Shown here piece after piece: positions 22,701-49,660 of a stretch of 64,000 nucleotides of DNA (positions within the stretch are counted from its first letter, which is position 1; the number at the start of each line of letters is the position of its first letter). A model generated the notes under the pieces. The model did no database searches, was not told the origin of the DNA, and saw nothing but the letters and a program-made list of their open reading frames with translations. Origin of the DNA: Myxococcales bacterium UBA1238 (GTDB lineage: Bacteria; Myxococcota_A; Bradymonadia; UBA7976; UBA1532); the NCBI GenBank assembly GCA_002309015.1, contig DBWM01000010.1, positions 62,501 through 126,500 on the forward strand, given 5' to 3'. The position numbers were made by a program, and so were the translations under genes.

Positions 22701-25700
22701 GGTGATTAAAGCTGGGAATGTGGAGCTTTTGACAAGCGATGAGTCTATGTTTGATTATCAGGCCAATCTGCTCCATGACGCGGCGCCCGATGTTTCACTC
22801 ACGATTGAACTGACGGTCACCGATAAGCAGAATCGCACAGATAAAGCGACCAAAGAGTTGCGTTTGGAATATAACACAACCTCTAATACTCCACCGACGC
22901 CAGTTCCTGGTGGCGATTATCACACCGCGTTTAAGACTACAGGCGGTCTATTCTCTGCAATCATAGATGGCAGTCGGTCTTTCGAATCTGATCCTTGTGA
23001 TGAGATTATCTCATATGAATGGACGATTAAGAAGACGGATGGAGCAGAAAATGCTCAGGTCATTTCGACCGCAAAGTCATTTGATATTGCAGAAAAAGCA
23101 TCGTTTATTTCCTTTGAAGGCGAAAAAGCGACATATGAGCTCATTCTGAAGGTTTGCGATACCTTTGGTGACTGTGATTCGGGTTCTGCCATTTTGACGG
23201 TCGATGATAAAGCGCCGCCCGTCATCGTTGTCGATGATGCCTATATCAATCTGGAAGGCAGCAATGGTTGCTTTGGCGCTCAAATAGAGGGTGAAGCGAC
23301 CAAAGAAACAGTGAGCATCAAATTCCAGGCAGCGGATCCCAACGCTTCTGTACTGACCATTACACCGCGTTTGGAGAGTGCTTCTCAAAATTACGTTTTA
23401 ACGACGATTGAGACTGCATTGTCCACTCCTACTGATGGCTCTATGACAGAATGGCAGTTTGCGACTGTGAATTTAACGAAGGATGCAGGTGGCAATGATG
23501 TTAAGGATGGCGTTTACTCGCTTATTCTTTCGGCTGCAACCAATGCTGCGACGCCTGTCACTGCGAATTCCAGTCCTGTGGGACCGATTACAATCGATCG
23601 TACGGCACCTGTGATTACGATTTCGAGCAGATCTAATATTTGCTACGTGAATGAGGACATCGCGCCTTCATATGTAGTTACCGATAACATCGACAACAAT
23701 CCTTATCGTGCGGTCTCTATGGCAACAGGTGAGAGCTGTCTGCGGACGCTGACGATCACTGCGCGCGATGCCTGCGGTAATACTGCAGCTCAGGACTGGG
23801 GCTTCAGGTTGGCTCAGCCTGTTTCGTTTACCCTGGATGCTCCCGAAGAAAATGCATTGGTGCCCAGCGCGACGATTAAGTGGACTTTAGACATGCACGA
23901 GGGTTGCTTTGACGACGGGTTTGAAGCCAAGTATCAACGAAACGATGGGGCAGAGCTCGATTATGTTCCAGAGAGTGTGCTGAGCATTCCCGGCAATTAC
24001 ACGGTAAGGGTTTCTGCAAGTAACTGTGCTCAGCAAGGCACTTATACGGTGATCCGGCATTTCAGAGTGAATGAGAAGCCGACAGCGGTCGCCATGCCCG
24101 AGCTTCACGGTCAGGTGGTTGATGGACATTATCAAATTCAACAAGGTGGAACGCTGATCTTGAACGGCAGCAGCTCCAGGCCTCCTGAACTTGATGATGA
24201 AATTAAAACCTATGAATGGACTTTAACTTCGTCTGATGACACCGTGATCGGTACGTATACAGGCGTCGAACCCTCCGTCACACTTCCTGACAGCGGAACC
24301 GTTAAGGGTCAGTTGAAGGTGACCGATTCCTTTGGACTTGAAGGCGTCACCGATTTTGAAATTGAAGTCACCGATGTGGATCCCATTCCGAACCCCGGCG
24401 GTCCTTACATTGTGCATCGGGGGGATGTCGCGACTTTCGACGGTTCGCTGAGCACTCCGGGAAGTGCAAATGAACCGATTGTCAAGTATTTATGGGTCTT
24501 TGGCGAAACTCCCGCTACTGTGACAACACCGATTTTAGATGCACTGGGCGCTTCGCCAGCAATCTCTTCGCCTGACGAGATTTACGAGACCCATGTTTTT
24601 GATGAAGAGGGCACTTATTATGCGACATTGTTCGTTTGCGACAAGGATTCTTGTGCATCGGCATCCGTGAAAGTGACCGTTCTGGATTGTTCTCCGCGGA
24701 TTGGCCAGGCGACTCTGCCTGAGCATCCGCATGAAATTGTGCCCTTTGATTTGACGTTTGATATTTCAGCTTGTTCAGATTCCGATCCCCTCAAATCTGT
24801 TGAGTGGGAATTTGATGACCATGCAGTTGCGTGGGATTTTGATAACGCTGATGACGAGAGGAAGAAAACCGTCGACTGTGATTCGCGTTCGGATTGCAAC
24901 CGGAAGACCTTCCAGTTCCGTACTGCTGGTCAGTACGCGGTGCGTGTGACGGCATATGATACGAATTCTTCTACGACCCAGTTGCTGATGGTGAACGTGG
25001 AAGAAATCACGCTGCCTCAATTGATCGATTACCTTGGAGACAGGCTGCGTGCGCATCTTAGGAAAGTGGAAGCCGGTGTCGCTAATTTGGTCGGTGGCGT
25101 GCTCAATATGACGTATAACTCGTCGGGGGCGGGTCGAGAGGGCCTCATCAAAGCAGTGCTGACGTACAATGACAAGGCCGCCTGGGGTGAGCGTCATGGT
25201 TTCCGTGGAAATACGTTGGAAGCGCTCGATAAAGTCGGGGTCACGTTGAATGACCTGATGGAAGATTTGACGAAAGCGAATCCCAGTTCCAGGAAGTATG
25301 TGCTGGAGCTTTGGGCTTTAGCGCGTCAGCTTGAACGCGAAGTGACCCGGCTTGAGGCGAAACGTTTGGCTGATGGTGTTGAAGCAGATCACCCCAGCAT
25401 GCTGGCGGCGCGCGAATCGATCAATGCGGTGGTTTCACGCTTCACGAATGATGGAAGTGATGCATCGGGTGACAGTTTTGAAGCCGTGCTGCAGAGCAAG
25501 CCGTTGGTTATCGATCAGCTTTGGCATGATACCTATAACGCTTATTACTGGCTGATGGATGCGGTCGACGCCTGCAATCAGTACGATGACTTCATGATGG
25601 ATGAGGTTACTTATGCGGATCCTTTGGCTCGCGTAGAAAACTCGGGATCTGTGGTCAACGAGGATCTGATCGAAGCGCTGGAGGATTTGGCGGCTGAAAT

Positions 25701-26259
25701 CGATGCCTATGCGAAAGCGGGTGCAGATACGGATGATTACGGCCCTGCCCACGAAGATGCAGAGGAAGCGTTGGCGATTCTGAACAACATTCGCCAGTAT
25801 CAGTCTCTGCCCATTCCTCTCGTTTGCCCCGAAGGTCAGACCTGCATTACAGACCGCGAGGCTTTGGAACTGGAGTTGAATCTCATTAAGCTGGCAAGCC
25901 TGCTGCAGTCGATGTCTTCGGCCTATGTTTACACGCGCAACTGGCAGAATTGTCTGGTTCTGGCCACCCAATTCCGTATCGAGGTTTCGATCCTTCGCGT
26001 CGGTTACGTTTGCGGTGAAAACATGGGTGACTACTTGCGTGCTCGCGCAGCTCAACGCGCAGGCCTTGCGAAGCTGAAGGACGGTGATTTTAATGCCAAC
26101 CTCGATGCTTTGAAGTACTACAGTATGATTGATCAGCAATGCCTGATGATCGATATTTACAATAAGTGTCTGTGCTCCAATGTGATGGGCCTGAACGAAA
26201 TCAATACACCTTATGAGGTGCCTGCGGCATGCATCCATGATGACCTCTCGGATGAGTAA
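19783..26259 (+). CDS. Giant secreted adhesin-like protein. Signal peptide, thrombospondin type-3 Ca-binding repeats, ~10 PKD/Ig-like domains, and a non-repetitive ~430-aa C-terminal domain.
   Basis: 2158 aa. Signal peptide [21 protein letters not shown]3 repeats [58 protein letters not shown]. Recurrent PKD signatures ([42 protein letters not shown]). GC is visibly lower than the flanking genes. Confidence 0.75.
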
Positions 26260-36181: not shown

Positions 36182-39100
36182 ATGTCCAACATCAAGCGAA
36201 TTTTATGGCCCATGCTCCTTTTGGTGGGCGCGTTGGGTTGCGATGACGACGATAACAACGATCCTTTAGATATGGGATCCTCTGATGGGACTGTAGAAGG
36301 GGATTCGGGCCAACAAGGCGGCTGGCATGCCTCGACAGACGGCTCCACAAGCGACGGCTCTTTGGACGACGGCTCTTTGGACGACGGCTCTCAAAGTGAT
36401 GGTTCTCCGGAAGACGGCTCCACAAGCGATGGTTCCCCGGAAGATGGCTCTCAAAGCGATGGTTCCCCGGAAGATGGCTCCACAAGCGATGGCTCCCAAA
36501 GCGATGGTTCCACAAGCGATGGCTCCCCGGAAGACGGCTCGATTCACGTGCCCAGATGCGGCGACGGCATCATCGACGACGGCGATGACTCCCAACCGAA
36601 TCACAGCAGCAAGGATCTTGGGGAAGAATGTGATGACGGCAATCGCATCAATGGCGACGGCTGCAACTATACATGCAAACTGGAACCCGAAGATCCGCTC
36701 ATTTATGTGAAACCTGCTCAGGATAACTGCCAGGGTGCTTTTGATCTGCCTTTCGATCGCACAAAGAAGAATGTGTCGGTCTTATATGGCAACGAAGAAG
36801 GTGAGTCTCACTGGTTTAAGTTTAAACTTGAAGAACCCGCCACCGTCATGATTCACACCACTGCGCCTGAAGTGGTCGATCTGACCGCGCCTTCAGCTTC
36901 TGATGCGGCGGATGCCGGTTCTGTGGATGATTTGCTCTTTTGCTACGGTGATACGCTCTTACAACTCTATTCGGGCGCCTATTGCACCACAGTGGAAGCT
37001 GAAAACGATGACCGCGGGATGACGGGCGACGTTGAAAACAAATGCTCCGCAATTTACAAAAGCCTCAATAAGGGGGTTTGGCATATTAAAGCCTCTGCTC
37101 ACGGAGCGACCACCGATGCTGCGGGCAATCCTCAGAAGAACCTGCTGATGGTTCAAATCATCGATCCTGTGGAAGAGGGCGGTGATTGCAGCGCAGACCG
37201 GCCTTTCCCCATCCCCTGCGCTTTCAACGCTTATTGCGACAAAGCGACCAAACAATGTAAAAACAATAAATGCGGCGATTTCGTGATTGCGGGCGATGAG
37301 CAATGCGATGACGGTTCAGAGCAGGGTATTTTGGATGCAGATACAGGCAGCTATTATGGTTGCCATGGTTGCCGCATCAACCCCATTCCGGAAGGCAAGC
37401 CCTGCAAAGATCTGGATTATTCCTGCGGGGTGACTCCTGATGGAGTGAACCTGGTTTGCGATGCAGCGAAGGATAAATGCATACGAAAAAGCTGCGGCGA
37501 CCGAATGGTTTCTGCAGGGGAACAATGCGACGACGGCAATCAGATTGCGACCGATGGCTGCCATGAATGTCAGTTTACGCCTTATAATGGCACAGAGACG
37601 GGCTCTGCTCATCCATTCCAATTGAATTTGTCGGCAGATGGACATGCGGAAGTCGTTTTTTCGCTCGATTGGCCGAACGAAGAAGACTGGTTTAAGTTCG
37701 AAGTCCCTGAAACCGGTCTGTATACGATTTACACTATGTCTTTAAATGAGAAAGACTGTGCGGGTGATACCGAGCTGTTTCTCTATAATGCAGGCAAAGG
37801 ACAGATCTCTTACAACGATAACGGCGGCAACCACGGTAAATGCTCCGAGATCAAGTCTGTGCTCTTAACGCCCGGCCTGTATTATGTCAGCGTGCGCGAC
37901 TATTTTGGAAAGCTGATCCTCGAAGGCGACTGGCTGGTGATTCAAAAAGACAAGGCCCTGGAAAAGGGAGACAGCTGCTCGACCGACCCCCGCAGTCCTG
38001 CCTGCAATTACAATTTATGGTGCAGCGAAACGACCCATAAATGTGTTGAAAACACGTGCGGTGACTTTCACGTGGCTGGCGATGAAGAATGCGATGACGG
38101 CGCTCAGGATGAAGATCCCGAGGATGGTTGCAACGCCTGCAAGATGACCGGCATCCCTGTTGGCAAGAGTTGCATCGTCAATGGTCCGATTGAATGTGTA
38201 TTCAATGCCTATTGCGGCGAAAGTGGCATCTGCGTTGAACATGGTTGCGGCGATGACCGTTTGGGGCCTCTTGAAGATTGCGATTTCAGCATCAGCGGCA
38301 CTGTCAGATGCAATGAGCAATGTGTGACCGACGATGTGACCGCACGCTTTAATGCGACTGTTCGACCCGATGGCCGTATCGATGCCCTCTATCCGCGCGG
38401 TGGCCACAATGACTTTGAAATGACGCTCGATCAGGATGCCTATGTTACGCTCGATACGGGTGATCCCTCTTGCTCAGCTGATACGGTGATGACCCTGTCG
38501 AAGATCGATCAAGGCCGCATTTTAATTGCAGAAAATGATGATAAACCGGGCAGTACCTGTTCGCGCATCGAGGTCTTTCTGGAAGCAGGGGTGTACCGCA
38601 TTTGGGTGCGTAACTATTCGGAATATCTATCAAATCCGGGCTATGAATTCGTGTATCACGCGAAAACTCTGGCGGCTGCGGGCGCTTCCTGCACGAGCAA
38701 TGACAACTGCCTTTCGGCCGATAACGCTTGTTGCGAATCGGGTTATTACTGCAGGAATCTGGTTTGCAGACAACATACCTGCGGTGACGGTGTGATTTCA
38801 TCTGTTCCCAATGACGAAAGAAAGATCGAGGAATGCGATGACGGTCAGAGTGAAGCACATGATGTTGAGACCGATGGCTGCTATCACTGCAAGCTGAGAC
38901 CCATTCCCGATGATTATCCCTGCGTGGCTGACAGTATTTATTCCTGTGAAGCTGAATCCTATTGCGATGAAGGCGCTGGGAAATGCAAACCCCATGTTTG
39001 TGGCGATGGCATTGTGGGAGGAGTGAGTGAACAATGTGACAATGGGCAGAATACGGCGGACGATGATCTGAGCGATGGCTGTGCGAGCTGTGTCTTCCAG

Positions 39101-41458
39101 CCTTACAAAGGAGATCAGGTTTCATCCACAGCTTATGCGCTTACGTTCGACGAAAATGACTTCGCGCGCGTGGTTTTCACGACCGATATTCCCGGTGAGG
39201 TCGATCATTTTTCGTTTGAGATCACTGAAACGACGAATGTGCTCATTTACACAGAAGGTCTCTATAAGAATGTGGAAGGGAGCCGTTATCGTCAGAGTCC
39301 TTACAGCAAGGATAACGGCAATTGCAGCGGTGATACAGTCCTCGAGCTCTATCGGGACGGTGATTTTGATTACCTGGGCAGCAACGACAACGTCAGCCTC
39401 TTTAGGGAGACCTTAAATTACTGTTCTCGCCTGGGCGAAGATAATTTCCTGCCGATGGCCAAGTTGCCGGCGGGTAAATACCGCATTGATGTGTATCAGG
39501 CTGACACCGATATCGTGGAACGGATGGGAAACTGGCTGGTTGTGCGTAAGATTCACAAACTGGAGCCAGGAGATTTATGCATGCGCGACGATGAAGATCA
39601 GCCTTGCCCTTATGGCTATGCCTGTAATGGCTCTTGTATGGCAGTGAGATGCGGCGATGGCGTGGTGAGCCAAGAACTAGGAGAAGAATGCGAGCCTCCA
39701 AACAGCGCGACTTGTTCGGATACCTGCCACATCAAACCCCGGGCGACCATCAAACATACGTCCTCTGAAGATGTAGACAGCATCACCCTGATTCCTGGGA
39801 CCGATACATATGTCACATCGGGAAGTGTCAGTAGCATAGTATCCATCGAAGGTGGTCATAAAGTGTTCATCAATGCCATCTCGGGCGCAGCTGATGATGA
39901 TCAGATCTATTACAATCTGTCGCTGGCAGAGGAGCGCTATGTGGTCATCAAATTGGGACGCAAGGATCCGAGCAATAGTGAGCAACCCACATGTGCATTT
40001 AATAGTGAGATCGATGGCAGCTTTATCATTTCTCAATTGAAAGGCGAACCACCGGCTCAGGGTTACTTTGAATACCAGGAAGTCGATGTTTATGTAGATG
40101 CTTGCGAGACGTTTAGGGGTCATTTGCCGGCAGGAGAATGGCGCATTAATGTCCGAAATGTGGCAAACGATGAATTACCCGCGTTCAGCGATTTCACGCT
40201 GCTGGTGGTGATTGGGCAGGAGTTGACGCCTGATCAATCTTGTGAAGATAAAGATGCGAGCGATAAAATCATCGATACCGAGGCGATCCCTTGCGCCGTA
40301 ACCGAAGGTAAGAGCTATTTCTGTGGCAGTAACTCTCACAAATGCGTAGTAGACTGGTGCGGTAGTGGTTATCAGGGCTTGGCAGAAGAATGCGATTATG
40401 GAGACGCGAATGGTAAAGAAGGCAGCAGCTGTTCTTCCACTTGTACATACCGCTATTCCGGGAACGTCTTTACGGCGTCCGGAGTTTCATCACAGACAGG
40501 GAATGTAGAGGCGAAGGGCGTTTATGAGTATTGGAAGCTGTCATTGACGGGGCCTGCGCTCGTTTCCATGGAAACAGTCACAAACGATTGTTCTGCATAT
40601 GCAGTGGGTGACACCTACATGCATCTCTATAGTGCGGCTCTGGGGCAGATCGACGACAAGGAAAGTCAGCCAACGTTTGATGATATCATATATAATGTAA
40701 ATTTCTGCTCCCGCCTGGATAATCTTTTGCTCGATGCGGGAGACTACGCGGTTGCTGTATCAGGTTATAAGACGGGCAGTTATCTCTTAAAGATAAAAAT
40801 ACATTACTTTATTGACAATGATGTGGCATGTGATCGCAAATTCTTCCATGATGTTTACACGGGCGATATCTGTAATCCAAATCAACATCTCATTTGCTGG
40901 ATGCAGACTAACGAAAGTGCAGGGATTTGTTCGCAGTATGGCAGCGATCAACTTTATGATGAGGTCGATACCAGCGAGCAGGACAATGATTCACTGGCAG
41001 CGCTCGAATCGAGTACGCAGACCGTTGCTTCGGTCAATTCAGGCTTTAAGGCTTACATGAACGGTGCTGCCGATACGGATGTCTTTAAGCTCGAATTGGC
41101 GGATTCGACCGAACTTTGGGTTTACACCAGCGATGGTGGGCAGGGTTGTCCCGGCGATACGATCTTAAGGCATAATGGCTCCGGGGCTCAAAATGACGAT
41201 GTGCCCGGTACCAGCAATCGATGCAGCCAGTTTGTGGAGACCTTTGGTGCGGGCACCCATGCCTTTACAGTCACCAACGGTGCCGATCGCGCGCTCAATG
41301 CCAAGTTTGATTACGTGATCCGCTTTAAAGAGACGCTGCCTGAGAACGCTCCCTGCGATCCCGATATGGTCTCAGCCTTCCCGCAAAACCGGTGCCAGAG
41401 TGGGACGACCTGTATCGACAGCGACAAAGACGGTAACGGTATCTGCGTAGCGAACTGA
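36182..41458 (+). CDS. Giant lipoprotein. It has a DGS-hexapeptide repeat region and ~7 modules of Myxococcales-type Cys-rich repeats (TIGR02232-like) alternating with PPC-like (pre-peptidase C-terminal) beta-sandwich domains.
   Basis: 1758 aa. Lipobox LLLVGALGCDDD. The DGSxxD hexapeptide is repeated ~11x (nt 36338..36541). Repeated CGDGxxxxxEECDDGNxxxGDGCxxxC units. Repeated PPC-like units (DWFKFEV...YTIYTMS...DTELFLYNAGKGQISYNDNGG...LTPGLYYVSVRDY). Confidence 0.7.
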   Translation: MSNIKRILWPMLLLVGALGCDDDDNNDPLDMGSSDGTVEGDSGQQGGWHASTDGSTSDGSLDDGSLDDGSQSDGSPEDGSTSDGSPEDGSQSDGSPEDGSTSDGSQSDGSTSDGSPEDGSIHVPRCGDGIIDDGDDSQPNHSSKDLGEECDDGNRINGDGCNYTCKLEPEDPLIYVKPAQDNCQGAFDLPFDRTKKNVSVLYGNEEGESHWFKFKLEEPATVMIHTTAPEVVDLTAPSASDAADAGSVDDLLFCYGDTLLQLYSGAYCTTVEAENDDRGMTGDVENKCSAIYKSLNKGVWHIKASAHGATTDAAGNPQKNLLMVQIIDPVEEGGDCSADRPFPIPCAFNAYCDKATKQCKNNKCGDFVIAGDEQCDDGSEQGILDADTGSYYGCHGCRINPIPEGKPCKDLDYSCGVTPDGVNLVCDAAKDKCIRKSCGDRMVSAGEQCDDGNQIATDGCHECQFTPYNGTETGSAHPFQLNLSADGHAEVVFSLDWPNEEDWFKFEVPETGLYTIYTMSLNEKDCAGDTELFLYNAGKGQISYNDNGGNHGKCSEIKSVLLTPGLYYVSVRDYFGKLILEGDWLVIQKDKALEKGDSCSTDPRSPACNYNLWCSETTHKCVENTCGDFHVAGDEECDDGAQDEDPEDGCNACKMTGIPVGKSCIVNGPIECVFNAYCGESGICVEHGCGDDRLGPLEDCDFSISGTVRCNEQCVTDDVTARFNATVRPDGRIDALYPRGGHNDFEMTLDQDAYVTLDTGDPSCSADTVMTLSKIDQGRILIAENDDKPGSTCSRIEVFLEAGVYRIWVRNYSEYLSNPGYEFVYHAKTLAAAGASCTSNDNCLSADNACCESGYYCRNLVCRQHTCGDGVISSVPNDERKIEECDDGQSEAHDVETDGCYHCKLRPIPDDYPCVADSIYSCEAESYCDEGAGKCKPHVCGDGIVGGVSEQCDNGQNTADDDLSDGCASCVFQPYKGDQVSSTAYALTFDENDFARVVFTTDIPGEVDHFSFEITETTNVLIYTEGLYKNVEGSRYRQSPYSKDNGNCSGDTVLELYRDGDFDYLGSNDNVSLFRETLNYCSRLGEDNFLPMAKLPAGKYRIDVYQADTDIVERMGNWLVVRKIHKLEPGDLCMRDDEDQPCPYGYACNGSCMAVRCGDGVVSQELGEECEPPNSATCSDTCHIKPRATIKHTSSEDVDSITLIPGTDTYVTSGSVSSIVSIEGGHKVFINAISGAADDDQIYYNLSLAEERYVVIKLGRKDPSNSEQPTCAFNSEIDGSFIISQLKGEPPAQGYFEYQEVDVYVDACETFRGHLPAGEWRINVRNVANDELPAFSDFTLLVVIGQELTPDQSCEDKDASDKIIDTEAIPCAVTEGKSYFCGSNSHKCVVDWCGSGYQGLAEECDYGDANGKEGSSCSSTCTYRYSGNVFTASGVSSQTGNVEAKGVYEYWKLSLTGPALVSMETVTNDCSAYAVGDTYMHLYSAALGQIDDKESQPTFDDIIYNVNFCSRLDNLLLDAGDYAVAVSGYKTGSYLLKIKIHYFIDNDVACDRKFFHDVYTGDICNPNQHLICWMQTNESAGICSQYGSDQLYDEVDTSEQDNDSLAALESSTQTVASVNSGFKAYMNGAADTDVFKLELADSTELWVYTSDGGQGCPGDTILRHNGSGAQNDDVPGTSNRCSQFVETFGAGTHAFTVTNGADRALNAKFDYVIRFKETLPENAPCDPDMVSAFPQNRCQSGTTCIDSDKDGNGICVAN

Positions 41459-42504: not shown

Positions 42505-42963
42505 TTAATGGGCTTCAATGTGAATGGCTGCGTCTTTGTCTTCGGTGGAGCTGTCTTCAGTTTGTTCGGTGCTTTCTGCATCCTGGTCGGGTACGGAGGC
42601 GTCGCCTGAGGCTTGTTGTGAGTCGTCGCGTTTATTGGATTTTTGGCCCACGAAACAAGCAGCGCCCTTCCATTTGGTGTGGTAAAGCTCGCAGGCGGCA
42701 TTGCAGCTGTCCTTGGCTGAAATGCATCTGCCTACGCTTTCACATTCACCGTCCTCGCCGCATACAAGCTCACAATGTCCATAGCGTACAGTTTGTCCGT
42801 CTGCGCAATCGCATTCCATGTCGCATTCGATATTGGAAACACAGGTGAGTTTGGCGGGTTCCTGTCCGTCGCATTTATCTTCTTCGCAACCCCAGAATCC
42901 GAAGCCCAGGGCGAGGAGCGCCAGGGCGGCAAAGGGGGATCGTGAGTTCAATCGGGTCAGCAT
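42505..42963 (-). CDS. Small Cys-rich secreted lipoprotein with an acidic C-terminal tail
   Basis: The ORF track runs to 43083, but the plausible start is the Met at 42963 (MLTRLNSRSPFAALALLALGFGFWGCEEDKC), giving a signal peptide plus lipobox. 14 Cys in ~80 aa. Confidence 0.5.
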   Translation of the reverse strand: MLTRLNSRSPFAALALLALGFGFWGCEEDKCDGQEPAKLTCVSNIECDMECDCADGQTVRYGHCELVCGEDGECESVGRCISAKDSCNAACELYHTKWKGAACFVGQKSNKRDDSQQASGDASVPDQDAESTEQTEDSSTEDKDAAIHIEAH

Positions 42964-43068
42964 CGTTTCAAATGGGCCTCCATCTTGAGTCAATTGATTT
43001 TTCTTATACCAGTCGCGCGCGGTATCGCCTATAGAGCGGCAGCATTTTCTTTCAGAAAAGAGGGCTCG

Positions 43069-43365
43069 ATGTTTCATTGGCAAGGGATTCTGGTGGGGTT
43101 AGGCTGCTTTTTGATGATCGGCCTGCTGCATCCGGTGGTGATTTGGGGCGAATATTACTTTGGAAAGCGCATCTGGCCGATTTTTTTGCTGCTGGGCATC
43201 GGCTGCGTGATCTTCTCCGGCTTGACTTCAAGCCTCGTCGCGTCGAGTCTGATTGCGGTCTTGGGCTTTTGCTTTTTTTGGTGCATTCTAGAGCTCTTTC
43301 ATCAGGAACGGCGTGTGCAGAAGGGCTGGTTTCCCAAAAATCCGAAGCGAACGTACAAAGAGTGA
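43069..43365 (+). CDS. Small 3-TM membrane protein (DUF4491-like)
   Basis: MFHWQGILVGLGCFLMIGLLHPVVIWGEYYFGKRIWPIFLLLGIGCVIF... The internal Met is chosen over the ORF-track start at 42985. Confidence 0.45.
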   Translation: MFHWQGILVGLGCFLMIGLLHPVVIWGEYYFGKRIWPIFLLLGIGCVIFSGLTSSLVASSLIAVLGFCFFWCILELFHQERRVQKGWFPKNPKRTYKE

Positions 43366-43388: not shown

Positions 43389-44933
43389 GTGAAAAAGGCG
43401 TTTTATCTTGCAGGACTTGCGGCTTTGGCTTTGGGCTGCTCGACTCATGAAGATGCGGCAAAGCCTTTAAAATCACATACGCAAGCGATCTATCACGGTT
43501 CGCGCACGCCGACGGTGGTCTCGATGACGGACGGACAACTGCTGGCTCTGGGGTGGCTGCACAGCCTGTCGCGACCTGTCAGCTCCTATTGTTCGGGCAC
43601 CATCATTGCGCCCCGCCTGGTGGCGACTGCAAAGCATTGCTTTGACGAAAACTCCCGCGCGGTGAGCATCGGATTCAGCGTGGGCCAATTGCGCGAGGAA
43701 CCCGTACATACCTTTACGCTCAATACTTTTTTGCTTCACGAAACCCGCGATGTGGCGCTTTTGGTGCTCGCGGAAGATGCGACCGAGGTTGTGCCCGGGC
43801 TTACGCCGATCCCGTTTAACCGAACCGCGATGACGAGGGCCGATGAAGGGCGCATGGTGCAGGCTGCAGGTTATGGCCGGACCGACAACGGCGCTACGGG
43901 TCGATTCTTTGCCGAGGTCAAGCTCACCGGGGTGACGGACGAGATGATCATCGTAGACGGCATGGGGCGTCAGGGCATCTGCAGCGGCGATTCCGGGGGA
44001 CCTGCGCTCCTCATGCAGTCGGGAGAATTGGCGGTTGTGGCTGTCGAGACCGAGGGCAGCAGCACCTGCGTGGGTCAGGACAGCATGACGCGCCTAGATC
44101 AGGTGGCCGAATGGATCGACTCCGTGGATCCCGAAAATGTGATACTGACCGACTGCGAGGCGATCGGTCCCAAAGGCCGTTGCGTGGGCAATGTGGCTTT
44201 ATGGTGCGAAACCACTGGCGTGATGCCCTATCGTTGCGCCGACTGGGGACAAATCTGCGGCTACGACGAGCGAAAGGATCGCTATTACTGCATCGATAAA
44301 CCCAACAACTGCGGCGATGTGCCCGAAGAAGGCCGTTGCAGCGAGACGGGCGTCGAATGGTGCGAAGATGGCGAGGTGATGACCGAAAACTGCGCGGAGA
44401 GCGAGCTGGTCTGCCATTTCGACGAGCAACTGGGCTATTACTGCGCCATGCCTTGCAGCGAAGAAGAATCCGTTTGTGAAGATCTGATTTGGCGCAGCTG
44501 CAAAGAGGGCTTTTGGACTTCGCAGGATTGCGCCGCGAGCGAAAAACTCTGCCTGGCCGACATGGGTTGCGTCACAGAAGAAGAATATGAAGATGCGGCT
44601 CTTGCGGACGCCCTGGTGCCGGATGCGGAGTTGGAGGACGCCGATTCAGAGGACGCCGATTCAGAAGACGCCGAGTTGCTGGATGCAGATTTGGAAGACG
44701 CGGAACCTGTGGAAGATGCTGAGCTTTTGCAGGATGCGGCGAAGCAGGATGCAGCGGTTGTCCCCGATGCGGCGAAACAGGATGCAGCGGTTGTCCCCGA
44801 TGCGTCAACGGATTCGGATTCCGGCGGATCCGATGGATGCAGCGCTTTACCGCAATCTGGCGGCCCTGCATGGCTTTGGGCTGGTTTAGGTCTTTTGGCG
44901 ATCGCTCCAGGAAGGCGTTTGCGAAAAAAATGA
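43389..44933 (+). CDS. Lipoprotein trypsin-like serine protease (S1 family) with C-terminal 6-Cys repeat modules, an acidic repeat region and a MYXO-CTERM-like tail
   Basis: 514 aa. Lipobox LALGCSTHED. Catalytic triad motifs TAKHC / DVALLVL / GICSGDSGGPAL. Four ~40-aa modules (C..G.C.GNVALWCETTG...CADWGQICGYDE..DRYYC). C-terminus GCSALPQSGGPAWLWAGLGLLAIAPGRRLRKK. Confidence 0.8.
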   Translation: MKKAFYLAGLAALALGCSTHEDAAKPLKSHTQAIYHGSRTPTVVSMTDGQLLALGWLHSLSRPVSSYCSGTIIAPRLVATAKHCFDENSRAVSIGFSVGQLREEPVHTFTLNTFLLHETRDVALLVLAEDATEVVPGLTPIPFNRTAMTRADEGRMVQAAGYGRTDNGATGRFFAEVKLTGVTDEMIIVDGMGRQGICSGDSGGPALLMQSGELAVVAVETEGSSTCVGQDSMTRLDQVAEWIDSVDPENVILTDCEAIGPKGRCVGNVALWCETTGVMPYRCADWGQICGYDERKDRYYCIDKPNNCGDVPEEGRCSETGVEWCEDGEVMTENCAESELVCHFDEQLGYYCAMPCSEEESVCEDLIWRSCKEGFWTSQDCAASEKLCLADMGCVTEEEYEDAALADALVPDAELEDADSEDADSEDAELLDADLEDAEPVEDAELLQDAAKQDAAVVPDAAKQDAAVVPDASTDSDSGGSDGCSALPQSGGPAWLWAGLGLLAIAPGRRLRKK

Positions 44934-44951
44934 TGCAGGAGAAGATCTGAA

Positions 44952-46049
44952 ATGTTGCGCAATGCCTTGGTTTTATGGAGTGCGTTTTCACTTGTGGCCT
45001 GCCAGGCACCGGAAGATGCGCCGCAAGTGGCGACTGTAAATCGAGCGATCGTCAATGGATCCCGAACGCATCACAGCGAGATTGTGCCGTTGAGCGAGGG
45101 GCAGCTGAAAGCCTTTGGATATCTTCACAAATCGGGCCAGGAAACGCGCATGTTTTGTACGGGTACCCTCATCGGACCGCGTCTGGTGGTGACCGCCCGG
45201 CATTGCGTGCATGACGATGAGCATTGTGTGGACAAAGAGGAGAGGGTCACCTGTACCGATGGTGATTTAAAGCCGCAGCAGGTTCAGTTTTCGATCGGTC
45301 AATTGAACGCAGAACCGGATCACACGTTTCCGGTATCAAAGATTCACTACCGTACAGATGCAGATCTCGCGGTCTTAATCCTTTCGCAGGACGCCACAGT
45401 GGTGGTGCCCGGACTGACGCCGCTCTCCTGGAATCGCAACGCTTCGCTTTCGGAGTTTGTGGAGCAGAAGATCGAGGTGGTGGGTTATGGCAATAACGCG
45501 CCCAACGGCGGCAAGGATTATTTTAATGGCCGCTTTTTTGCGGATTTAAAGTTTGCCAAACTCGACGATCGCTATGTCTGGGTGGACGGTGAGGGTGAGA
45601 AGGGGCTTTGCGATGGCGATTCCGGAGGGCCCGCATTGCTGACGATCGATGGGGAAGCGGTTGTGGTCGCGGTGGAATCTTTGGGCGAGGAAACCTGCCT
45701 GGGACTGGATAAGATGACTCGCCTCGACGGGTTTGCCGAATGGATTGAAGACCTCGATTCCGACGTTGAGACTTCGGATTGCGGGGGGGTGGATTACGCG
45801 GGCTATTGCGAAGACAGCAGGGTCATTTGGTGTGAAGACGGTCAGCTTTGGCATTACGACTGCGACAGTGATGGCCTGAGATGCGGCTACGATGGGGAGG
45901 GATACAACTGCCTCGATGAGGGGAGTGAATGGCTTTGGGGTGAAGGTGAGGATGGCTGCGGAATGATGCCGCATCGCGGTGGGATCAGTCTGTTTTGGCT
46001 TTGTGTCTTGGGCGTTTCCGCCGTAAGAATCCATCGTCGCAAACGGTGA
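44952..46049 (+). CDS. Lipoprotein trypsin-like serine protease (S1), paralog 2, with Cys modules and a MYXO-CTERM-like tail
   Basis: 365 aa. Lipobox SLVACQAPED. TARHCVHDDEHC / DADLAVLIL / CDGDSGGPALL. C-terminus DGCGMMPHRGGISLFWLCVLGVSAVRIHRRKR. Confidence 0.8.
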   Translation: MLRNALVLWSAFSLVACQAPEDAPQVATVNRAIVNGSRTHHSEIVPLSEGQLKAFGYLHKSGQETRMFCTGTLIGPRLVVTARHCVHDDEHCVDKEERVTCTDGDLKPQQVQFSIGQLNAEPDHTFPVSKIHYRTDADLAVLILSQDATVVVPGLTPLSWNRNASLSEFVEQKIEVVGYGNNAPNGGKDYFNGRFFADLKFAKLDDRYVWVDGEGEKGLCDGDSGGPALLTIDGEAVVVAVESLGEETCLGLDKMTRLDGFAEWIEDLDSDVETSDCGGVDYAGYCEDSRVIWCEDGQLWHYDCDSDGLRCGYDGEGYNCLDEGSEWLWGEGEDGCGMMPHRGGISLFWLCVLGVSAVRIHRRKR

Positions 46050-46283
46050 TTCGACGCGCTCTTCGGATTCATCGGGGCAATCTTTCGCCCTTTGACGGTC
46101 TTCACCGCATTTTTTTGAAATCCACCCGATTTATCTCTTCTTTCACCCTCAAAACGGTTGTACGTTAACGGCGTTTGGTGCCTAACGGGCGATCGTGTTT
46201 CACTTTTGGGTCGCCAGTTTGACTTGAGAAGCCGATCTTTCATTGGGCAATGACCTTTGGCTTTACCTTCATAAGGAGATGAC

Positions 46284-47474
46284 ATGCGAATTTCTCACGT
46301 GGCTGCAGCGCTCGCCTGCGTTTCGCTTTGTGCCTGCACCGAAGAGGAGAGGGAACAAATCCGTTCTTCCGACGAATCTTTCGAGTGGGTCCAAAGCCCC
46401 ATCGTCAACGGATCCCGCACACATGACTCCAGCATCGTCGATTTAACCGACGGGCAATTGAAGGCTTTCGGGTATCTTCACCGCTACGGCTCCAATCGAA
46501 CCATGTTCTGTTCGGGGACCATCATCGCTCCGCGCGTTGTGGCGACCGCCCGTCACTGCGTGCACGACGAGGATTCACCGTCCAGCGATACACGCCCGGG
46601 TGACATCCAGTTCTCCATCGGCATGTTCAATTCCAGCCCGGAATACACCTTTAACGTCTCTGAAATTCACTACAACCAGAATGTGGACGCCGCCATCCTG
46701 GTGTTGTCCGAGGATGCCACGGCGGCAGTGGACGGTCTGACGCCCATTCCCATGAACCGATCCGGGGCGCTTTCGGGCTTCGTAGGCAAGAAGGTGCAGG
46801 TTGCAGGGTATGGGAACACCGTGGGCAACGGTGGATCGGGTTATTACAAGGGGCGTTATTTCGCCGAAGTGCGTTTGGCTTCGGTCGATAACACCATGAT
46901 CAATGTTGACGGTGAAGGGCTTGAAGGCATTTGCGACGGGGATTCCGGCGGTCCCGCACTTTTGACCGTCAATGACCAGGTGGTGGTGGTCGCGGTCGAA
47001 TCGAACGGCGCCATGTCCTGCGTCGACGTGGATCATATGACGCGCCTCGATCGAATTGCCTCCTGGATCGACAGCTTCGATCCCGACGCGGATTCGAATG
47101 AGAACCCCTGTGGTAATGTGTCGTACGTCGGTTACTGCGATGGAAACGTTGCCGTGTGGTGCAACACCGAAGATGGCGTTTCCGCGATCGCACGCCGTGA
47201 CTGCGCTGCTGAAAACAAAGTTTGCGGCTATAGCACCTCGTATGGCTACTATTGCATCGATGGTAACGGGGGATCTACCGGCGGTAACGGTGGCTCTGGC
47301 AGCGGTGGATCGGGTGGATCCTCCGGAGTGACAGGCACCAACGGATCGGGTGGAAGCTCTGTCCCCACCAATACTACGCGCGGTTGCTCTTCGATGCCCG
47401 GTCAGTCCCAGGGTATCTGGGGCTTCTTGCCGGTGATTGGCCTCCTGGCCCTCCGTCGTCGTCGCAACGCGTAA
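46284..47474 (+). CDS. Lipoprotein trypsin-like serine protease (S1), paralog 3, with Cys modules, a Gly/Ser linker and a MYXO-CTERM-like tail
   Basis: 396 aa. VSLCACTEEE. TARHCVHDED / VDAAILVL / CDGDSGGPALL. C-terminus RGCSSMPGQSQGIWGFLPVIGLLALRRRRNA. Confidence 0.8.
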   Translation: MRISHVAAALACVSLCACTEEEREQIRSSDESFEWVQSPIVNGSRTHDSSIVDLTDGQLKAFGYLHRYGSNRTMFCSGTIIAPRVVATARHCVHDEDSPSSDTRPGDIQFSIGMFNSSPEYTFNVSEIHYNQNVDAAILVLSEDATAAVDGLTPIPMNRSGALSGFVGKKVQVAGYGNTVGNGGSGYYKGRYFAEVRLASVDNTMINVDGEGLEGICDGDSGGPALLTVNDQVVVVAVESNGAMSCVDVDHMTRLDRIASWIDSFDPDADSNENPCGNVSYVGYCDGNVAVWCNTEDGVSAIARRDCAAENKVCGYSTSYGYYCIDGNGGSTGGNGGSGSGGSGGSSGVTGTNGSGGSSVPTNTTRGCSSMPGQSQGIWGFLPVIGLLALRRRRNA

Positions 47475-47680
47475 CGCTTTCTCCATCTATCCCCCCGGTA
47501 TCACCCTCCTTCCCTTTCGCTCAACACCGATCACCCCCTGTAAGCAACGCGTTGCCCGGAATGTTTGGGGCATGTTCCCGGCCAGTAGTCCCTTTTTGCG
47601 GTGCAAATCAATGCCCTTTTTCTGGGTGTATTTTACTGTAACCTCTTTGTATTTTTTTTTGAATCACAAGTGAGAGCATC

Positions 47681-49660
47681 ATGCGTAAAGCTGTTTTTCT
47701 GTTTGCCGCCCTGTGTCTGGCCGCCTGCCAGGATGAAGAAATCGTCGATCGAGGGGGGATGACGTCGCAAGCCGACTTCAATCTCTCAATGTCCGAGAGG
47801 CTGTCCGTCGATGTAAGCCGTAAAAGCGCCATCAACCCGGGGGATGCGGAGCTTTTGCGCAAGAGCACCCACCGCACCAAGGCGTCCTGTGGCGACGTCA
47901 CGACTGAAGGTCGATGCAATGGCACCACGGCAGAATGGTGCTCGGATGGTGAACTCAAATCATTCGACTGCGGCAACGTCGATATGGGTTGCGGCTACGT
48001 CAACAATGACCTGGGGTATTACTGCACCTGCGACGTATCGACTTACAATGCGGGGTGCATCGGCAGTTTCGCCGTTTGGTGCGAGACGCCTTCTTCGGGG
48101 GGAAACCCAACGCTTGCAATGTATAACTGCTCTGACAATGACCTCACCTGCGGAATCAGTGATGGCTCATTAACCTGCGTAGAATCCTCGGGAGAAGGTT
48201 GCGGCAACGTCACCTACGAGGGGTATTGCGACGGTGATGTGGCTTATTGGTGCAAATATGCGGGGACCGCATCGGAAACCATTGCGCATTACGACTGCTC
48301 CCAGGAGGGTAAAACCTGCGGGCTCACTTCAGATGGCGATTATTACTGCGTAGAACCCTCGGGAGGTGGTTGCGGCAGCGTCACCTACGAGGGGTATTGC
48401 GACGGTAATGTTTTGTATTGGTGCGATAACCCGGGGACCGCATCGGAAACCATTGCGCGTCAGGATTGCTCCGCGAGTGATAAAGTCTGCGGAGATGATG
48501 GTGATGGCAATTATTACTGCAAAGAATCCTCGGGTGGCAATTGCGGCAACATCACATCCCAGGGGACATGCGACGGCGACGTATTGACGTATTGCAATGA
48601 CGGCGAATTAAAGACGATCAACTGCCGTTCTGCCTATGCTGTCGCGGGGAGGCAGACGGAATACACCTGTGATTGGTCCAGCAACTACAACAGTTACTCT
48701 TGCGTCATCGATGATGATACCGGAGCCTCCTGCGGTACAGTCAGTTCTGCTGGACGCTGTGCTGGCAATAACCTCGAATATTGTTACCAGAATACTCTGC
48801 ATCGCCTTTATTGCGCCGAGTTCGGCTACGTTTGCGGCGAGGATGAGGTCAATGGCGGCTATAACTGCATCGAATCCAGCTCTGTAACCGATGGTGGTAC
48901 CGATGGTGGATCTGCGGATTCAGGATTGATCGATAGCGGTACCGACGGTGGATCTACAGATTCAGGCGTAAACGACAGCGGTACCGACGGAGGATCTGCG
49001 GATTCAGGATTGATCGATAGCGGTACCGACGGTGGATCTGCGGATTCAGGCGTCAATCAGGACAGCTCCATCGGTGAGGACAGCGGAAGCAGTGATGGAG
49101 GCAGCGTGGTCACCGATGGTGGAACGTCGGATTCCGGTGGTGGCGACCCTTGTAACGGGGTGTCTTATGAAGGTAAATGCAGTGAAGATGGTCGATCCTA
49201 CAGTTATTGCGAGAATGGTCACCTTTACACCAATCCTTGCCCGGAGGGTAAGATCTGCGGCTTCGTGCAGACCAGCGGCATGTACACCTGTGTAAAGGCT
49301 CAAACCACAGATGCAGGCGAGCCTCAGGACAGTGGAACTGTAACGGATGCAAGTGGTGAAACCACCGATTCCGGCAGTACAACTGTGGATGCAAGCGATG
49401 ATGCAAGCTCATCCCAGGGGGATGCCAGCGAATCCAACGATTCAGGCAACGTAAGCACCCAGGATGCAGCTTCTTCCGATGCCTCCAATGGAAACAATCA
49501 CGGCGGTAATGGCGGATCCAATCAGGGCAGATTGCGCGATGCCGACGTAGATGACTCCTCTACAGTTTCTGCAGCGGGCTGTCACTCCCTGCCTGGGCAT
49601 TCATCCACGCCGTTTTGGGCGCTCATACCCCTGTTGGCATTCTTGCGCCGCCGCCGTTAA
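47681..49660 (+). CDS. Protease-less paralog. Lipoprotein with ~9 tandem 6-Cys modules (CGNVTYEGYCDG.V.YWC...GTASETIA..DCS...K.CG...DG.YYC), Gly/Ser/Asp repeats and a MYXO-CTERM-like tail.
   Basis: 659 aa. Lipobox LCLAACQDEE. The module is the same one found at the C-termini of the three proteases. A 60-nt near-perfect coding tandem repeat lies at ~48893..49062. C-terminus AAGCHSLPGHSSTPFWALIPLLAFLRRRR. Confidence 0.7.
   Translation: MRKAVFLFAALCLAACQDEEIVDRGGMTSQADFNLSMSERLSVDVSRKSAINPGDAELLRKSTHRTKASCGDVTTEGRCNGTTAEWCSDGELKSFDCGNVDMGCGYVNNDLGYYCTCDVSTYNAGCIGSFAVWCETPSSGGNPTLAMYNCSDNDLTCGISDGSLTCVESSGEGCGNVTYEGYCDGDVAYWCKYAGTASETIAHYDCSQEGKTCGLTSDGDYYCVEPSGGGCGSVTYEGYCDGNVLYWCDNPGTASETIARQDCSASDKVCGDDGDGNYYCKESSGGNCGNITSQGTCDGDVLTYCNDGELKTINCRSAYAVAGRQTEYTCDWSSNYNSYSCVIDDDTGASCGTVSSAGRCAGNNLEYCYQNTLHRLYCAEFGYVCGEDEVNGGYNCIESSSVTDGGTDGGSADSGLIDSGTDGGSTDSGVNDSGTDGGSADSGLIDSGTDGGSADSGVNQDSSIGEDSGSSDGGSVVTDGGTSDSGGGDPCNGVSYEGKCSEDGRSYSYCENGHLYTNPCPEGKICGFVQTSGMYTCVKAQTTDAGEPQDSGTVTDASGETTDSGSTTVDASDDASSSQGDASESNDSGNVSTQDAASSDASNGNNHGGNGGSNQGRLRDADVDDSSTVSAAGCHSLPGHSSTPFWALIPLLAFLRRRR

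Follow-up and report, generated by a model that had tools for sequence, protein, structure and literature searches.

We have found that a single large gene in a 64,000 nucleotide stretch of the genome of Myxococcales bacterium UBA1238 (GenBank assembly GCA_002309015.1, contig DBWM01000010.1, positions 62,501 to 126,500 of the forward strand; this whole stretch is called the window here) codes for a protein of 1758 amino acids (aa) that is a lineage-specific member of an abundant family, already named and experimentally unstudied. The gene is located at 36182..41458 on the forward strand. Behind a lipobox and an acidic stalk, its product carries seven beta modules (B) that alternate with cysteine-rich blocks, and one of them, B2, was modelled as a beta sandwich of the kind found in the PPC and collagen-binding domains of collagenases. 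On balance, we favour the view that this is a lipid-anchored, multivalent binding protein (an adhesin or matrix protein) stiffened by Ca2+ and disulfides.

Module architecture of the 1758-aa protein

The open reading frame (ORF) is single and uninterrupted from ATG to stop, with a GGAG Shine-Dalgarno-like motif directly 5' of the ATG. Its coordinates, its length and the general description of its product had been given correctly in a first-pass annotation, made from the sequence alone. Motif searches together with self-alignment gave the module order signal/lipobox, stalk, M1-B1, K1-M2-K2-M3-B2, K3-M4-K4-M5-B3, K5-M6-K6-M7-B4, K7-M8-B5, K8-M9-B6, K9-B7, K10 (Table 1), where M stands for the Myxo repeat and K for a mini-module with four Cys that the first-pass annotation had not noticed. 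The B modules are between 122 and 171 aa long, instead of the approximately 110 aa proposed at first. There are nine Myxo repeats, six of them canonical and three (M5, M8 and M9) degenerate, with the CDDGN core lost. Ahead of B1 to B7 their numbers are 1, 2, 2, 2, 1, 1 and 0; the one to three repeats per iteration described before are therefore one or two in front of B1 to B6, none in front of B7, and never three. The ten K copies have the consensus G(D/E)xC-x(5-10)-C-xxGxxC-x(3-9)-C, and a copy is found after every B and before every M except M1.

The whole protein scored 40.2 bits against the Pfam PPC model (PF04151, cut-off 25.9). When the modules were scanned singly with this model, B2 was the sole one that passed the cut-off (37.8 bits), B1 and B7 stayed below it (13.4 and 15.2 bits) and B3 to B6 gave no match, while the NCBIfam model NF038127 gave sub-threshold values of 18–24 bits each for B2, B3, B4 and B6. 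The B modules are 17–31% identical to one another and the phmmer comparisons among them go from 7e-11 (B2 against B4) down to non-significant values, i.e., they are old, divergent copies. In order to avoid circularity, a hidden Markov model (HMM) was built from 150 modules belonging to other proteins only, and this family-only HMM recovered B1–B4, B6 and B7 (E-values from 1e-12 to 2e-25). In B5, which occupies the equivalent position, the LPAGxWRIxV strand is retained and so is the Cys pair. This Cys pair (C.GDT ... NDD....CS, C63 and C91 of the module) is common to the B modules of the family, and all of the invariant Cys positions are kept in the modules of the protein studied here.

We have modelled the segment B2-K3-M4 (aa 464-660) with AlphaFold2, using 21 aligned module sequences as input. 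The model had a mean predicted local distance difference test (pLDDT) value of 82 and a predicted template modelling (TM) score of 0.75, with 87–94 pLDDT over K3 and 53–69 over M4. B2 appears in it as a nine-stranded beta sandwich with pLDDT around 90. Searched with Foldseek against the PDB, B2 had as its top match the PPC domain of the Bacillus anthracis collagenase (5sv5, E 1.5e-6, TM-score 0.73 target-normalised), followed by the ColG s3b and ColH s3 collagen-binding domains (1nqj_A with a target-normalised TM-score of 0.73). After these came the C-terminal domain of the Clostridium perfringens enterotoxin that binds claudin (C-CPE), together with PliG (a lysozyme inhibitor) and GOLD domains; the structural neighbours also included a protease of the subtilisin type along with its propeptide. 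A sequence profile of the B modules matched ColG s3a-s3b as well (5iku, E 3.8e-5). These structural and profile matches indicate that the B module is a binding module of the PPC/collagen-binding-domain type, with the modelled B2 superimposing on solved structures. The PPC-like beta sandwiches of the first-pass annotation are supported by PF04151 for the whole protein and, among the single modules, for B2, and by the model of this one module.

The cysteine-rich blocks were recognized well above the curated cut-offs, in agreement with the Myxo-type repeats reported before. The protein gave 97.2 bits with Pfam DUF4215 (PF13948, cut-off 27) over six stretches and 75.9 bits with NCBIfam TIGR02232 (cut-off 20.8) over seven. 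A profile made from 53 K-M units and searched against the PDB matched residues 878-912 of human PAPP-A2 (E 4.4e-5) and residues 865-896 of mature human PAPP-A, equivalent to 946-977 of the full-length protein (8hgg_C, E 5.4e-4), and the Myxo repeat aligns nearly motif for motif with both. The match in PAPP-A falls within the M3 domain (S944-G995), a small coil/strand domain that holds two Ca2+ in the structure obtained by cryo-EM (PMC9579167). From this similarity we infer that the Myxo repeat forms a small unit locked by disulfides and stabilised by Ca2+, so the bacterial version would also bind Ca2+. According to the structure paper, no sequence similarity had been reported so far for the PAPP-A domains M1-M6 (PMC9579167), and the paper on PAPP-A evolution makes no mention of a bacterial repeat. 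The same profile also had a weak match (E 0.011) at the C-terminal edge of a construct of the ADAM17 catalytic domain, which hints at a relationship with the CGNG..GEECD segment that opens disintegrin-like domains.

The K-M model (K3-M4) reached a mean pLDDT of 81, with about 90 over K. Foldseek gave no match for it at E≤0.001, the best being inhibitor-cystine-knot spider toxins over some 33 residues, and no Pfam model matched any of the ten K copies. K is thus a previously undescribed mini-module that forms part of the repeating unit, and its fold remains unclassified by Foldseek and Pfam. The mature protein contains 94 Cys, an even number that makes full disulfide pairing plausible, and it is very acidic (isoelectric point around 4.2, 304 D+E against 121 K+R).

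At the N-terminus, the lipobox pattern with its Cys20 supports the earlier prediction of a lipoprotein, a putative substrate of signal peptidase II, by pattern alone. The N-termini of the homologues are similar ([GA]C[DG][DE]). In the stalk we found a DGSxx pentapeptide repeated 14 times (aa 53-122) and encoded by 15-nt units at 36338..36547 when the units are read in frame, where the first-pass annotation had seen a DGSxxD hexapeptide with 18-nt units at 36338..36541. Tandem Repeats Finder gave periods of 15, 30 and 60 for this array, which was also found as repeat family D1. At the other end, the protein finishes in DGNGICVAN (...SDKDGNGICVAN), with no hydrophobic stretch, Arg tail or sorting tail. 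The MYXO-CTERM anchor (TIGR03901: Cys motif, hydrophobic helix and Arg-rich tail) had no match anywhere in the protein, and neither the Pfam nor the NCBIfam scan found a peptidase domain.

Table 1. Modules of the 1758-aa protein and a chromosomal marker of the window (positions in the window).
Feature	Position	Strand	Basis
Signal peptide and lipobox, aa 1-20	36182..36241	+	MSNIKRILWPMLLLVGALGC fits PROSITE-style lipobox pattern; Cys20 predicted lipidated
Acidic low-complexity stalk, aa 21-125	36242..36556	+	Composition D24, S25, G20, K0, R1
M1, Myxo repeat, aa 126-165	36557..36676	+	Best TIGR02232 stretch aa 124-169; matches regular expression CGDG..EECDDGN..DGC..C
B1, PPC-like with long insertion, aa 166-335	36677..37186	+	Family-only HMM E 1.2e-12; PPC weak, E 0.15
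K1-M2-K2-M3, aa 336-463	37187..37570	+	Cys spacing and motifs; best DUF4215 stretch aa 425-464
B2, PPC domain, aa 464-598	37571..37975	+	PF04151 37.8 bits; AlphaFold2 pLDDT ~90; Foldseek top matches collagenase PPC/collagen-binding domains
K3-M4-K4-M5, aa 599-714	37976..38323	+	Motifs; K3-M4 model pLDDT 81; K-M profile matches PAPP-A/PAPP-A2
B3, PPC-like, aa 715-836	38324..38689	+	Family-only HMM E 9.1e-21; NF038127 E 0.003
K5-M6-K6-M7, aa 837-970	38690..39091	+	Cys spacing and motifs
B4, PPC-like with insertions, aa 971-1132	39092..39577	+	Family-only HMM E 6.7e-16; phmmer against B2 7e-11
K7-M8, aa 1133-1182, M8 degenerate	39578..39727	+	Self-alignment and motifs
B5, position-equivalent beta-type, aa 1183-1353	39728..40240	+	Aligns with other modules: Cys pair and LPAGEWRINVRNV
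K8-M9, aa 1354-1421, M9 degenerate	40241..40444	+	Self-alignment and motifs
B6, PPC-like, aa 1422-1549	40445..40828	+	Family-only HMM E 3.8e-16; best NF038127 stretch aa 1422-1531
K9, four Cys, no Myxo repeat after it, aa 1550-1583	40829..40930	+	Self-alignment and motifs
B7, PPC-like, aa 1584-1724	40931..41353	+	Family-only HMM E 1.3e-14; PPC weak, E 0.042; sole module with DxD-aromatic
K10, C-terminal four-Cys mini-module and stop codon	41354..41458	+	Translation and self-alignment
recC / recB-like / recD-like series, 1228, 1309 and 680 aa	5668..17751	+	Chromosomal marker

A large family of lipobox and repeat proteins

The first-pass annotation did not recognize the combination of modules, at this scale, as a described protein type. 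We found that it belongs to one. The protein passed the cut-off of the NCBIfam model NF038127 (DVUA0089 family protein) with 49.2 bits (cut-off 29, E 7e-13) over four stretches. In a search of 5.8 billion proteins the identical protein appeared once (NCBI and Logan) and, apart from it, nothing was above 30% identity, so no close relative or other strain turned up, the closest relative having 30% identity over 38% of the length. The same search gave 54 relatives, at least 20 of which alternate B and M, most of them with a lipobox and then an acidic or Gly-rich stretch (e.g., P0003, with 10 B, P0029 and P0006). They are named at NCBI "DVUA0089 family protein" or "DUF4215 domain-containing protein" (Myxococcales, Myxococcota, Bradymonadia) and at JGI "cysteine-rich repeat protein". 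The scan of GTDB representative genomes gave one distant locus only.

The abundance of the repeating unit became evident when a B-K-M profile was compared with 1.84 billion cluster representatives: 33,545 matched at E≤1e-3, 12,321 at 1e-10 and 2,177 at 1e-30. Many of these matches carry 10–40 matched stretches and many have 5–13 beta modules. Among the 195 proteins that were retrieved, 37 have at least five B and at least three M, and the B-K-M order was found in 30. The family proteins, in Myxococcota/Bradymonadia, are often 1,000–6,000 residues long, and some are considerably larger than the one in the window, such as P0055 (3080 aa, 13 B) and P0056 (3417 aa, 12 B and 21 M). Literature searches found no experimental study of the function of the family and no papers on TIGR02232, while DUF4215 was mentioned once, in passing, and DVUA0089 appeared in a single regulon listing.

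We have also looked at the residues that bind Ca2+ in ColG. Its double Ca2+ site we take to consist of an ExExND linker (E899, E901, N903 and D904) and a S..D.RD-aromatic loop, consistent with the matched ColG sequence. In the modules of the other family members, taken from the retrieved proteins, ExExND or EP[ND]x was present in 106 of 454 and DxD-aromatic in 175 of 454. The PPC-like modules of the family are of two kinds in this respect. Approximately one quarter keep ExExND/EPND (e.g., P0007, P0008, P0013 and P0030), and others lack it entirely, among them every module of the window protein and every one of P0003; an intermediate form, EEPD[SA], was seen in P0002 and P0005.

Taken singly, the protein matters little, as it adds a further member to a very large family that has a name already. 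It is the family that is worth attention, since the module recurs in tens of thousands of protein clusters, none with a reported ligand or role. Three by-products of the analysis may be useful. The repeating unit consists of B plus K plus the Myxo repeat, and Pfam does not contain K; the Myxo repeat can be aligned to the M3 region of PAPP-A, with its two Ca2+, although no similarity had been reported earlier for the M domains of that protein (PMC9579167); and the beta modules of the family split by the presence or absence of the ExExND clasp, the window protein being without it.

Proposed role and its alternatives

The mechanism that we propose is the following. Signal peptidase II would cleave the precursor and Cys20 would carry the lipid. 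The stalk, an acidic and probably disordered segment of some 105 residues that includes the 14 DGSxx units, would hold the body of the protein off the membrane. The K and M modules, probably loaded with Ca2+, would act as stiff spacers that form a semi-rigid rod, along which each of the seven mutually divergent B modules could offer a surface for binding. As a set, the modules would bind polymeric or cell-surface ligands, e.g., the prey envelope, the extracellular matrix or the substratum. There is indirect support for such an adhesin or matrix role: the relatives of the B module are binding domains, DVUA0089, the namesake of the family, is listed in an exopolysaccharide/biofilm regulon (PMC4641369), and a diatom adhesive-trail protein has 12 DUF4215 repeats (bioRxiv 10.1101/2023.03.06.531300).

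Several observations weigh against this proposal. The family-only HMM (E 0.88 and 91), Pfam and NCBIfam all missed B5, which is too divergent to be confirmed, so that among the approximately seven iterations of the first-pass annotation, which do stand as seven B alternating with Cys-rich blocks, six are independently supported. In the models, confidence over the Myxo repeat is no more than moderate (pLDDT 53–75). None of the seven B modules has ExExND or EP[ND]x, and one (B7) has DxD-aromatic. A direct transfer of ColG-like, Ca2+-switched collagen binding was considered and rejected, since the clasp residues are absent and collagen binding is therefore not simply transferable. In the literature, no family member with a demonstrated function or ligand was found. 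The window has nothing in common with the neighbourhoods of P0005 and P0003, two of the relatives, and the genomic context, not being conserved, gives no functional support. Finally, Asp occupies positions +2 to +5 after Cys20. Asp at +2 would imply inner-membrane retention under the rule that holds in Escherichia coli, a sorting rule that is known not to hold in all phyla, and surface exposure is for this reason an assumption.

Part of the same evidence could be read in terms of a passive structural component, i.e., a Ca2+-binding, disulfide-rich coat or matrix filler in which the repeats provide length, rigidity and charge and not ligand recognition. The extreme acidity (pI 4.2, 304 D+E), the similarity of the Myxo repeat to the Ca2+-binding M3 of PAPP-A, the place of DVUA0089 in the biofilm/exopolysaccharide regulon (PMC4641369), the DUF4215 repeats in the diatom adhesive trail (bioRxiv 10.1101/2023.03.06.531300) and the loss of the collagenase-type Ca2+ clasp from the beta modules all fit with it. 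We consider it rather unlikely. The fold of the beta modules is that of domains specialised in binding (collagen-binding domains, C-CPE, PliG), the 17–31% identity among modules fits better with diversified binding faces than with pure spacers, and the predicted lipid anchor argues for a protein attached to the cell and not released. A connection with proteolysis, the protein serving as a docking scaffold for secreted or lipoprotein proteases or as a multi-headed inhibitor restraining them, would have natural partners in the three trypsin-like enzymes coded in tandem as lipoproteins 2 kb downstream (43389..47474). PPC is a typical appendage of secreted peptidases by the definition of PF04151, and PliG and the subtilisin-type protease with propeptide are among the structural neighbours. 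Even so, we find such a role very unlikely, as the 1758-aa protein contains no peptidase domain, the DUF2062 gene and an ORF on the opposite strand intervene before the proteases, these have no B or M module in common with it, and there are no trypsin genes near the relatives P0005 and P0003.

The idea that the gene might be an assembly artefact, raised with the first description of its repeats, or a decaying pseudogene, has been largely refuted, and the chance that it is right is close to nil. The assembly is of the metagenome type, and the near-identical 15-nt units of the 210-bp DGS array are such that short reads could misjudge their copy number. However, apart from this array no DNA repeat in the gene exceeds 30 nt, the frame is open over 5.3 kb, the modules are no more than 17–31% identical, all the invariant Cys are in place, and the separate Logan assembly of SRR5324856 has the identical protein on a 9.1-kb contig. 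Only the number of units in the DGS array could plausibly be misassembled.

Beyond the multivalent binding protein that we favour here, a wider generalization can be made, by analogy, that we put forward as quite unlikely at this point. The B-K-M unit could be what a large class of mosaic receptors on bacterial surfaces is built from, comparable to the CUB-EGF/LDLa proteins of animals. In these receptors the Myxo repeat, which PAPP-A also has and which looks like the beginning of ADAM disintegrin domains, would be loaded with Ca2+ and rigidify arrays of diversified PPC-type modules. Myxococcota and Bradymonadia include bacterial predators, and the predatory Myxococcota might recognize prey surfaces in this way. 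The protein of the window would then be a lineage-specific variant that dropped the collagenase clasp and in which K is an integral part of the unit.

Genomic surroundings and closest known systems

The gene lies between a sodium:neurotransmitter symporter gene, on the opposite strand, and a gene for a DUF2062 membrane protein. The window also carries recBCD-like genes, a series that indicates that it is chromosomal, together with aspS and TPR proteins. The best named relatives of its AspRS are from Bradymonadia/Myxococcota metagenome-assembled genomes (MAGs), at 59–61% identity, and Bradymonas sediminis is at 56%, which points to a host that branches deeply within Myxococcota and is Bradymonadia-like. 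The gene has a GC content of 0.508 (0.536 at third codon positions, GC3) compared with 0.553 for the window and a GC3 of 0.6–0.79 in most neighbours. The low GC pointed out in the first-pass annotation is therefore real with regard to most of the neighbours, but it is not peculiar to this gene, given that values are also low for the symporter gene next to it, for the DUF2062 gene and for a giant PKD gene at 19783..26259. A promoter/terminator scan around the gene was uninformative, the consensus matches being fewer than in shuffled sequence.

Other exported proteins are coded nearby, namely the three trypsin-like lipoproteins, a repeat protein with 45 Cys and the PKD giant. The trypsin-like serine proteases are tandem paralogs of 514, 365 and 396 aa (43389..47474, forward strand), each with a lipobox-like N-terminus (e.g., ALALGC, SLVAC, SLCAC) and with a Cys-rich C-terminal extension and a GC..P...hydrophobic...RRR tail that resembles MYXO-CTERM. 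With TIGR03901 only the third gene gave a value, 17.9 bits (cut-off 20). The presence of a lipobox together with a C-terminal sorting-type tail in the same protease is a curious pairing. MYXO-CTERM-like tails are found in the genes at 43389..49660, unlike in the 1758-aa protein. The last of them (47681..49660, forward strand) codes for 659 aa with 45 Cys and has no Pfam match. It contains a DSG/DGG acidic low-complexity stretch, a MYXO-CTERM-like tail with a weak NF045523 match and a repeat of approximately 45 aa with six Cys, CG.VTYEGYCDG.V..WC...(12-20)...DC....K.CG......YYC. Single copies of this unit are also present in the C-terminal portion of two of the proteases, those at 44952 and 46284, and it may represent an undescribed repeat family.

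The PKD giant (forward strand) has 2158 aa and 49 Cys, with PKD, K319L-like PKD and REJ-like regions and a stretch that resembles the thrombospondin-type-3-like part of NF047638 (MtsC cell-cohesion MYXO-CTERM protein). The match to this model, 50.6 bits, is far under the cut-off, and the GC3 of the gene, 0.50, is the minimum of the window. An ORF on the reverse strand (42505..43083) had no Pfam or NCBIfam match. Its 192 aa include 15 Cys and an acidic tail and may contain an internal signal/lipobox (LALGFGFWGCEEDKC); translation may in fact begin downstream of the TTG given as its start. In the Bradymonadia MAG GCA_046290225.1, P0005 (1956 aa) is directly followed by a second family member of 1403 aa with PPC/DUF4215 (16061..20272 of contig JBKAGE010000060.1), so genes of this family can stand in tandem. 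Upstream of this pair is a gene for a 1755-aa protein with a weak match to MopE (copper-binding).

The closest known systems are the proteins of the NF038127/"cysteine-rich repeat protein" family itself (e.g., MGC4115112.1 and MCK6547814.1). They have the same build, a lipobox-type N-terminus, a low-complexity stalk and PPC-like modules alternating with DUF4215/TIGR02232, from which the window protein differs in the K after every B, in its own stalk of 14 DGSxx and in lacking ExExND. In the case of the clostridial ColG s3a/s3b and ColH s3 and the B. anthracis PPC domain (5sv5, 1nqd, 1nqj, 4hpk, 3jqw and 5iku), the beta sandwich is the same as that predicted for B2 (target-normalised TM-score around 0.7, Foldseek E from 1e-6 to 1e-5), and both the collagenase domains and the B modules occur in tandem. 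However, the window protein has neither a peptidase domain nor the Ca2+ ligands of ColG, and it has the extra Cys pair C63/C91. Collagen binding by its B modules is not expected. Animal CUB-EGF (MAp19) and CUB-LDLa (Neto2) proteins are designed along similar lines, in that a small disulfide/Ca2+ module comes after a beta sandwich with a binding function. This is an analogy only, without sequence relationship, and the Foldseek alignments are weak (167–199 columns, ranks 40, 44, 46 and 49, TM-scores of 0.26–0.33). With PAPP-A and PAPP-A2 the likeness is in the sequence itself, as the Myxo consensus CGDG..(E)EECDDGN..GDGC...C aligns with the M3 region. The motif that is found once in these animal proteases (PAPP-A/PAPP-A2/ADAM) is present in the window protein as nine interleaved copies.

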